From contig JAQGDQ010000075.1 in assembly GCA_030141605.1 (NCBI GenBank), forward strand, positions 496,001 to 560,000: 64,000 nucleotides of DNA, in the 5' to 3' direction. The translations under genes and the position numbers were made by a program. This DNA comes from Tubiluchus corallicola (Eukaryota > Animalia > Priapulida). The notes under the pieces are model-generated. The model was not told the DNA's origin. It saw only the letters and a list, made by a program, of their open reading frames with translations, and ran no database searches. Positions 25,401-28,400 of this stretch are shown here, in pieces (position 1 is the first letter of the stretch; every line of letters begins with the position of its first letter).

Positions 25401-28400
25401 GAATAATCTTCCAACACTGTAACAGTGATTATATCCTACCTTAATTTCCACTTCGCCTCTGAATTTCATAGAAAATCCTCCCATATCTTGCAAGATGGAA
25501 TACGTCGATGCACTAATGTGAATTTTCATAGCTAAAAAACAACCAACGAAAGGTTATTGTTGAAACTATTCGTGATGATTTCAGTTTTAATTCTTGATAC
25601 AATATTCTCACAATATGCAGTCAAATCCATTAGTAAAGTAAGCGCAATTAATAATTGCTTCTGTTTTCTTGTAATTAGATGTCACAAATTAGGCAAGATA
25701 TGTTATCGCTACAAGTTCTAACATTAATTACTGAATTACCTGACAGATGTGATAGTTAAATCAGTCTCACGAAATTTTATAATTCAAGGAGTAATATGGA
25801 AATTCTGGACAGGGCAGGAAAAAGTGTCGAAGAATTCCCGCTTTAGGCTTCAGGATTCTGCCAGATCTTCCTATTTAAGGCGTAGAAGACTAATTACAAG
25901 CAAGGCAGGGTACTGGCCCACCACTACGTGTCTCGAAAGATTAAAGATGAAGATACCTAGTACTCCAACACCTTTAGTAATGATTCCCTAAAATTGTTTT
26001 GCGTCAGGTTGTTTTCTATAAGTACGAAAATATTAAGCCAATATAAAGAGTACTTACGTTCACTTGTAGTCTCTATGCGGGACGCTGTGTTTACCGTATC
26101 GCCAAATAAACAATATCTTGGCATCTTATACCCCACAACACCACCAACAACAGGACCTAACAAAAAGAAATTGCGTATATTGATAGCTTCTGCTAGAAAA
26201 CAGTCATTACACAATCCATTTAATTTGTGTGTAATTGAATTAAAAAATTGTAAGAAATTGAATGGGGTCTTTTCACTAACTGTTGCATAGAAGAGTTTTT
26301 GAAACACGTTCTTCAACCCCAAAAAAGAACATCCTAGACAGGATTACGCTATTTCACTACATGTTTTTCGGTAATTAAATAAAAACAAAACTATATTACG
26401 TGACGTACCAGAATTTATTCCAACCAGCAACTTCATGGTAGAATTGAGTTTTTGTGGGATTGGTATTTCTTCTATGACATGAATCAGGTCTAAAGCCATG
26501 GCAGCTATTTCACTCGCGTGTTTTTTCCCATTTCTGGAAGGACAACCTGACACAACCATGTATAATCCACCTACAAACATACAAACCCGTAGTTACATAA
26601 TACTATGATTTGTCACTTTTTTCTTTTTTCCCTACTCTCTTCTCTCTAGGAGGAATAGCTAAGTGGATATTGTGGGTTCGCTTGTCTATGGTGTTTAACA
26701 ACGCAGGCTTCGTTAGACTGGATGAGTACAAATGACGAAAATTGCTAGATGCTGCTTTTAACTGTTTCTCTCATTAGCTTTATTTACACACATTACGTTC
26801 GTAACTAAAACACATCTGACGTTTTAGTTTCTCATCTCAGAAGATTTCCCTTGTCAATGAGGTCCCAATCCAGGACCTTCAGCTGTCTACGTTAAGTATA
26901 CATTGTCATTTGTCGTTCTTTGCTGGGTAACTAACTTTCTCTCTCGCTTTCTCTCTCTCTCTCTCTCTCTCTCTCTCTCTCTCTCTCTCTCTCTCTCTCT
27001 TTCTGTCTGTGTGTCTGTCTGTCTCTGTTCCTGTTCTCCCACTTTTCATCCCTTTGTCCAACTTGTTTAGATTTCATGACAACTGAACTTAAACACAATT
27101 ACCTATTGTTTCTACCTTGTAGACGTCATACAAATCAATCTTTGAATCGAAGACCTGATATAACGTATTAAGCATGTGCACCACTTGTATTGGCGTGATC
27201 TCTGAGCAGATCTTGTCAAAATCAACAATGTCGGAGAAATAAACGGTGACTTGCTCGAATGCTTCAGGATATACCATTTCCCTATTTGTAAGTTTAGTTG
27301 CAACTGATCTGGGAAGCATTTCGTAAAGGAGTAATTCTGCTCGTTTCTTCTCTTTATTTAGATCAGTAATCGTGTCACGCAGTGTTTCGGCGAATAACTG
27401 AATATCGCTTGTCATTACATGCATGAAGTAAATAATAACAGGAGATAAGAAAGAAACAACACACAATACGATGATGTTTATGCTCATGTGTCTTCCTGCA
27501 TGCTCTGCCTCGGCCTGAAATTTTTCCTCTAATTCACCAGAAAGCAAAACTTCCAATTCGTGCAGAAGATCTATGTATACCGTCATGTTGTCAAACCACA
27601 CAGAACCTCTGGAAGGAGATGGTTCTTGAATTTTGTTTTCTAAAATCTCTTTTCTGCTTGTTTTTATTGTGTTTTGCAATGACGTATTTGCATATGTTGC
27701 GTTCAGGTACTTTTTAACCGTTGAGGAGTATTGTATGGCAGAAGCAAGACGCAATTCTCCTTGAAATAGTTTCTCTGCATATTTAACAAATTCGGGTTGA
27801 GTAAATCCACCTGAAAGAAAAAAATCTGTTAAAACACATCAGAATGGATATGGTGTAATAAAGATAGAATCCAGCCCAATTCAAGTCCAAGTCTTCAATC
27901 CAATTTTATGCGATTTAGTTCAGTTCCATAATAATTCCAGTTCAGTCCAGTCCAGTCCAATTTTTTTATTGGTAACTTTAGTTAAATGTATTAGATTGGA
28001 TTAAACTGGATTGGATGTGAATGAACGGGATTTAACTGGGCTGAATTGTGCAACTTTAGTTAAATGAATTAGATTGGATTAAGCTGGAAAGGAAAAAAAC
28101 TGGATTCGACTGGACTAGATTGGGCCGCATCGATTGGATCGAATTTTCACAATTCTTGCTCACACTGCAAAAATTCCCCAAAACTTAAGATGGAGTATGT
28201 TCACTGCTAGCATTAATTAGAGACACACAGTTATAGATATCAAGCGTAGAGCTAGTGACATCAATCCCTAGTCGTAAGTATTGTTGTAAAGCCACGTGAT
28301 TAAGCCTAATGTTCAGGCCGCAGCAGGTGCGTTCTTGTTCAGCTAATTAGACGATAATTAAATCTGGCTGACACTGTTATACAAGGCACGCGCACGCTTA

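Follow-up and report, generated by a model that had tools for sequence, protein, structure and literature searches.

A Tubiluchus corallicola NIT-domain guanylyl cyclase with one-sided loss of catalytic residues, a probable half-site subunit

A guanylyl cyclase gene of the NIT type (NIT-GC) lies on the minus strand of a 64,000-nucleotide stretch of Tubiluchus corallicola DNA (hereafter the window), at 30576-22487, in six exons separated by introns that are all GT-AG. With the first ATG of the frame taken as the putative start, the joined exons encode 639 aa with no internal stop. An earlier reading of the locus, made from the letters alone (the sequence-only reading), had described an intact six-exon frame at 25440..27250; the intact frame stands, but those coordinates cover only the 3' part of the gene. 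The exons are as follows.

Exon 1, 29817..30576, minus strand: ATG, first membrane span and N-terminal NIT part (Pfam NIT, E 8.8e-23)
Exon 2, 27103..27810, minus strand: remainder of NIT, then the second membrane span, the signalling helix and the start of the cyclase, with D447 and E487 kept and with D450 and D452
Exon 3, 26409..26570, minus strand: bears Gly491 and Leu538
Exon 4, 26058..26156, minus strand: C559, N566 and R570 (beta set), all unchanged
Exon 5, 25440..25531, minus strand: its 3' end is K607, the first Lys of KGKG, equivalent to K593 of soluble guanylyl cyclase (sGC) beta1
Exon 6, 22487..22585, minus strand: closing strand of the cyclase followed by a short tail and the stop codon; located from its motif and from continuity of the frame

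Exon 6 falls below the tblastn reporting size. In intron 5 and just past this exon, window positions 22507-24369 and 24784-25197 show very deep coverage by contigs of run X1, which indicates high-copy repeats. Several other features were observed in the window.

54370-55593, minus strand: glycosyltransferase family 49 gene (Pfam PF13896, E 2.6e-76), presumably B4GAT1/LARGE-like, with a probable last exon at 50916-51212 (minus strand)
10572-11465, minus strand: Sulfotransferase_2 exon (PF03567, E 7.7e-46), resembling a carbohydrate sulfotransferase
36546-38285, minus strand: long reading frame with a YADD-type motif, which we take to be a LINE reverse transcriptase; further such fragments lie near 12400-12900, 34500-36100, 44100-44800 and 48500-49000
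1061-1348, plus strand: short frame resembling an exon of an immunoglobulin domain

Pfam assigns exons 1-2 of the NIT-GC to the NIT domain (PF08376) and exons 2-4 to the guanylyl cyclase domain. Hydrophobic stretches flank the NIT domain (residues ~70-99 and ~361-388), and the cyclase (PF00211) follows directly after the helix with no kinase-homology domain; the guanine-selecting E487 and C559 are present. The NIT Arg pair consists of R128 (30195-30193) and R244 (29847-29845), both in exon 1, and each Arg motif has an aligned counterpart in NasR 4AKK. An HNOBA match covers only the 35-residue helix, and the protein has a NIT domain and two membrane spans and no H-NOX or PAS domain; it is therefore not an sGC. 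With two spans and a cyclase placed straight after the helix, it is not a receptor cyclase of the ODR-1/DAF-11 type either. The NIT domain between two spans, the Arg pair, the class III cyclase and the grouping by sequence are those of an animal NIT-GC, a layout described in PMC7400543.

The catalytic residues of sGC are divided between its chains, with D486, D530 and R574 assigned to alpha and E473, C541, N548, R552 and K593 to beta, and this split is the explanation given in PMC3591389 for the inactivity of sGC homodimers. Docking and simulation added alpha G489-T491, beta F543 and beta S551 as further GTP contacts (PMC7289801). An intact NIT-GC relative was aligned to human sGC alpha1, with numbering counted from the alignment, and three alpha-type sites are changed in the T. 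corallicola protein.

27215..27217, minus strand: Asp452 for the P-loop Thr (sGC alpha1 T491), from alignment
26566..26568, minus strand: Gly491 (GGA) for the second metal Asp (sGC alpha1 D530), from alignment
26425..26427, minus strand: Leu538 (CTG) for the gamma-phosphate Arg (sGC alpha1 R574), from alignment

The sequence-only reading had assigned these changes to the alpha/C1 side, correctly, and the motifs and codons that it reported are present (GGA at 26568-26566, CTG at 26427-26425). Asp447, at the alpha1 D486 position, is kept. So is every beta-set residue listed in that reading: E487, C559, N566, R570 and K607, which align to beta1 E473, C541, N548, R552 and K593. The motif FSDIVDFD, also offered there as a lesion, stands in part. 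Its T-to-D change is informative, but DFD as a double lesion was rejected for the first D: the Gly of the GFT loop varies across NIT-GCs (D in 40/275 and N in 35/275 scorable relatives), so that G-to-D is ordinary and no lesion by itself. The N of the GINSG motif is also frequent (37/188 relatives). P-loop T-to-D occurs in only 4/275 relatives, all of them alpha-damaged and all with a damaged second Asp (4/4), and the P-loop Thr is altered in 27/35 alpha-damaged versus 8/240 alpha-intact NIT-GCs. The second metal Asp is present in 255/275 NIT-GCs and the gamma-phosphate Arg in 270/275.

Across the cyclase, the protein differs at 5 of 55 conserved columns, three belonging to the alpha set and two being conservative changes among the 45 other columns. 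Alpha-set columns are thus enriched among the departures (3 of 5 alpha columns among 5 departures, hypergeometric p 0.0036), where the 55 columns are those with 90% or more conservation among 138 intact NIT-GCs, a set defined partly by the tested columns, and the site sets are those of PMC3591389 and PMC7289801. With 3/5 alpha columns changed and 0/5 beta columns, the residue pattern is that of a half-site subunit, and G491, L538 and D452 break the full one-chain set of a homodimer-active receptor GC.

Splicing and sequence quality were considered as sources of the lesions. Use of another acceptor that restores the Asp had been named in the sequence-only reading as a refuting sign; in a scan of 78 AG sites that began in intron 2 and ran on into exon 3, three are open in-frame and none restores Asp, and no duplicate exon 3 occurs within the window, so that both routes to an intact residue were rejected there. 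No exon junctions were seen in the run X1 and X2 contigs, the Gly491 codon lies in no listed piece, and no RNA record is listed for the gene, so that the 27103/26570 junction is a predicted one. Sequencing error was likewise rejected: a Priapulus caudatus ortholog (P0001, below) has the Gly491 and Asp452 changes too, and the Leu538 codon has a second allele, a synonymous Leu codon, in a run X1 contig. As the window and run X1 may share one sample, the allele counts against error and not as independent support. A run X1 contig covers most of exon 2 (27039-27699) with zero differences, and the seven differences near exons 3-4 that were listed and classified comprise six intronic and one synonymous. 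A separate contig, from run X2, is 93% identical to window 27237-27399 (exon 2) and shows 11 differences over 164 bases of that exon, the seven listed being four synonymous and three conservative; it may derive from a recent paralog or a related species and was left out of the analysis.

The best match of the T. corallicola protein is P0001 (P. caudatus LOC106820963; 53% over exon 2), the next full-coverage matches among the best 120 of 1,168 reaching at most 43%. Its motifs read FSNIVDFD, ETIGGAYM and LRAGIHSG, with the Thr-to-Asp and Asp-to-Gly changes in common with T. corallicola; P0001 also lacks the first Asp and keeps the Arg. Retention of D or R in orthologs had been put forward as evidence against the half-site reading, and this sign is present for the Arg; both metal Asps are gone, however, so the alpha half is still dead. 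P0001 departs at 3/32 scorable columns, all three in the alpha set (p 0.002), and its cyclase, the best-conserved part, is 74% identical to that of T. corallicola, compared with 41% for NIT. The record ends at the exon 3/4 junction, before the C-terminal cyclase half with the beta sites of exons 4-5, and looks like an incomplete gene model. A third ortholog, the exon-2 fragment P0214, reads FSNIVDFD with the first Asp changed to Asn and ends at the same intron position as exon 2; the Asp452-type change is common to all three. In a quick IQ-TREE analysis of 56 chosen rows (NIT-GCs only, catalytic columns removed, no outgroup), the three form a clade with SH-aLRT 88, or 99 with the Priapulus paralog P0226 included. 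As judged from this grouping with catalytic columns removed and from the shared lesions, the alpha half is already broken in their common ancestor, and further losses are independent.

That the further losses differ between orthologs (the Arg in T. corallicola, the first Asp in P0001 and P0214) would also suit a non-catalytic sensor or slow decay, in which the cyclase fold persists as a scaffold and the alpha-side losses came by chance or first in time. The truncated P0001 record and the loss of both sets in 8/219 relatives point the same way. We consider such an origin quite unlikely: all six exons are intact, the cyclase is the part most similar to P0001, the two changes in the 45 other conserved columns are conservative, and the classified run X1 differences near exons 3-4 are intronic or synonymous. 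The orthologs also bear on a homodimer of weak activity, whose metal ligand in place of the second Asp would be Asp450 or Asp452. The first Asp is kept in T. corallicola, the two new carboxylates follow it at distances of 3 and 5 residues, and T-to-D is restricted to proteins with a damaged second Asp; but the DFD-bearing orthologs are also without the first Asp, the T. corallicola protein has lost the Arg as well, and an Asp placed in the phosphate loop is expected to push the triphosphate away. Homodimeric activity of this kind therefore appears very improbable.

A complementary paralog with Asp/Asp/Arg intact, anticipated by the sequence-only reading, was found in P. caudatus, where genes of both damage types thus occur in one genome. 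Besides P0001, a recorded cyclase is found in just one Priapulus NIT-GC, P0225 (LOC106811014), and the NIT-GC table in the PMC7400543 supplement has these two proteins as its Priapulus entries. Its alpha set is full (FSDIVGFT, ETIGDAYM, LRIGVHSG), while its beta region reads RYCLVGDTVAIAAR, in which Val, Ala and Ala occupy the positions of sGC beta1 F543, N548 and S551; these beta1 residues are beta-chain GTP contacts in the docking and simulation of PMC7289801. The KGKG loop is replaced by KDGE, and the Glu, Cys, Arg and first Lys are retained. The beta-side enrichment in this one predicted sequence is not significant (1/4 misses in the five-site test, p 0.32). P0225 is a long branch that falls outside the lophotrochozoan beta-damaged clade, in trees where deep NIT-GC nodes lack resolution. 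Among the matches listed for its orthologs in short proteins (120 of 998), only general GCs were found. The third Priapulus NIT gene, P0226, is a partial record without its cyclase and could be an intact or a different partner. Further Priapulus paralogs are absent from the best 120 of 1,168 and the best 120 of 305 matches and are found in the best 150 of 23,226. Both NIT Arg residues are also present in P0001, P0225, P0226 and P0204.

One-sided loss extends well beyond priapulids. A family pool of 324 proteins was assembled from the best 120 of 1,168, the best 120 of 305 and the best 150 of 23,226 matches plus 2 cluster members; 12 proteins without a NIT match were dropped, the alpha set was scorable in 275 and both sets in 219. 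The 219 comprise 138 intact proteins, 55 with beta-only loss, 18 with alpha-only loss and 8 with both, so that one-sided loss (73/219) is far commoner than two-sided loss, although near-duplicates in the pool make these counts descriptive rather than independent. The beta-only class has lost Asn and/or Arg, with 38 of the 55 lacking Asn. Alpha-damaged and beta-damaged classes coexist in single species, for example of Tubulanus, Lingula, Mactra, Lottia and Owenia. A lophotrochozoan clade carries N-to-S/T and R-to-K changes that match sGC alpha1 (T602, K606). A related clade is rich in alpha-damaged members; two of these are Tubulanus P0090, which shares the FSGIVGFN of beta1, and P0232, in which both Asps and the Arg are gone. 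The beta-damaged and alpha-damaged-rich clades are sisters in FastTree (0.945), a relationship that IQ-TREE leaves open. In an echinoderm-hemichordate clade the second Asp is changed to Glu, which may keep some function. Because the priapulid clade is separate from these clades, half-site loss arose more than once; the asymmetry noted in the sequence-only reading is thus not confined to this gene. One-sided NIT-GCs show a median of 3-4 other changes compared with 1 in intact ones, and general decay could also yield such extra changes in some of them.

Three further observations come from the same pool. In Tubulanus polymorphus, which also has P0061, the locus numbers of the beta-damaged P0072 (LOC141900864) and the alpha-damaged P0232 (LOC141900875) are close together, so these two may be a complementary pair adjoining in the genome. 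P0244, P0210, P0258 and P0227 form a well-supported clade with both sets damaged and the Cys changed to Tyr or His, and are candidate pseudo-cyclases. The second NIT Arg is absent in 34/194 aligned relatives, 16 of which have Met there; such subunits may be blind to the ligand or tuned differently.

The abundance of intact NIT-GCs (138/219) also supplies possible targets for an inhibitory or tuning subunit, one that would pair with an intact cyclase (a P0226-type NIT-GC or another receptor GC) and halve or damp its output. The signalling helix and dimer surface of the T. corallicola protein are intact, an inactive heterodimer has been reported for MsGC-beta3, and P0226, on record without its cyclase, is a possible intact target. 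A pure inhibitor has no need for all five beta-set residues, however, and neither of the two Priapulus NIT-GCs with a recorded cyclase is intact; we regard this role as unlikely.

The T. corallicola protein is instead probably an sGC-beta-like half-site subunit, likely needing an alpha-like NIT-GC. The half-site proposal of the sequence-only reading draws support from the correct alpha/C1 assignment and from the complementary Priapulus paralog, and the protein is predicted to be inactive alone because most alpha-type residues are lost. Pairing, activity and ligand are what we infer from sequence. The alpha-like partner would supply Asp, Asp, Arg and the GFT loop, and the T. corallicola subunit Glu487, Cys559, Asn566, Arg570 and Lys607, the two together building one GTP site; the second, pseudo-symmetric site, made of two damaged halves, would be dead, as in sGC. 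Both subunits keep the NIT Arg pair, and binding of nitrate, nitrite or an NO product to the NIT domains would switch the site on via the signalling helix. Such a switch would work only in cells expressing both genes.

Several known systems share features with this arrangement. Like the T. corallicola protein, animal NIT-GCs have two spans around NIT, two Arg, a signalling helix and a C-terminal GC without a kinase-homology domain. Expressed by itself, Platynereis NIT-GC1 produces cGMP, an activity for which its NIT domain is required (10.1101/2023.08.02.551600); the T. corallicola protein, in contrast, is without the alpha set. sGC beta1 (FSGIVGFN, ITIGIHTG) likewise keeps Glu, Cys, Asn, Arg and Lys and has lost one metal Asp, the Thr and the gamma-phosphate Arg, but the missing Asp is the first in beta1 and the second in T. 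corallicola, whose protein has no H-NOX heme domain and is membrane-bound; NPR1 is a nearer relative of its cyclase than sGC is. A membrane precedent is provided by ODR-1/DAF-11 of C. elegans, an obligate heterodimeric receptor GC (PMC5225109) in which, as in the proposed pair, each monomer gives part of one site; these cyclases differ in being single-pass, with a kinase-homology domain and another ectodomain, and belong to a separate family. Mammalian adenylyl cyclase C1/C2 also combines one active site with one degenerate pseudo-symmetric pocket (PMC3591389), with the difference that both halves lie in one chain and the enzyme is ATP-specific and G-protein regulated. NIT-GCs and half-site cyclases (sGC, AC C1/C2, ODR-1/DAF-11) are each already known. 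No account of half-site NIT-GCs was found in the literature searched, which included few subscription journals and excluded the Platynereis supplementary alignments; in main texts, the word "dimer" occurs 0 times in 10.1101/2023.08.02.551600, and the placozoan paper PMC7400543 uses it of NOS alone.

More tentatively, and short of an even chance, NIT-GCs as a family may act as combinatorial nitrate/nitrite/NO receptors in which an sGC-like alpha/beta split arose repeatedly and independently (in priapulids, lophotrochozoans, and echinoderms and hemichordates), with the Priapulus pathway running via an obligate heterodimer. That heterodimer would join two different NIT sensors to one catalytic site, its vacant pseudo-symmetric pocket would be open to allosteric ligands, and cGMP production would need both genes in each cell. 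Heterodimers are not obligatory for NIT-GCs, since NIT-GC1 shows activity by itself and is found in another compartment of the same Platynereis cell than NIT-GC2 (10.1101/2023.08.02.551600).

Through NIT-GCs, invertebrates have a heme-free path to cGMP that starts from NO or its products and was discovered recently; a functional assay was found for one member only. If about one-third of them are half-site subunits, single-gene expression tests would wrongly score these as dead, and pairs would be needed; the Priapulus pair offers a concrete two-gene experiment. If the half-site reading is true, the family would provide a further independent origin of sGC-type alpha/beta asymmetry, and the route from homodimer to obligate heterodimer could be compared across lineages.
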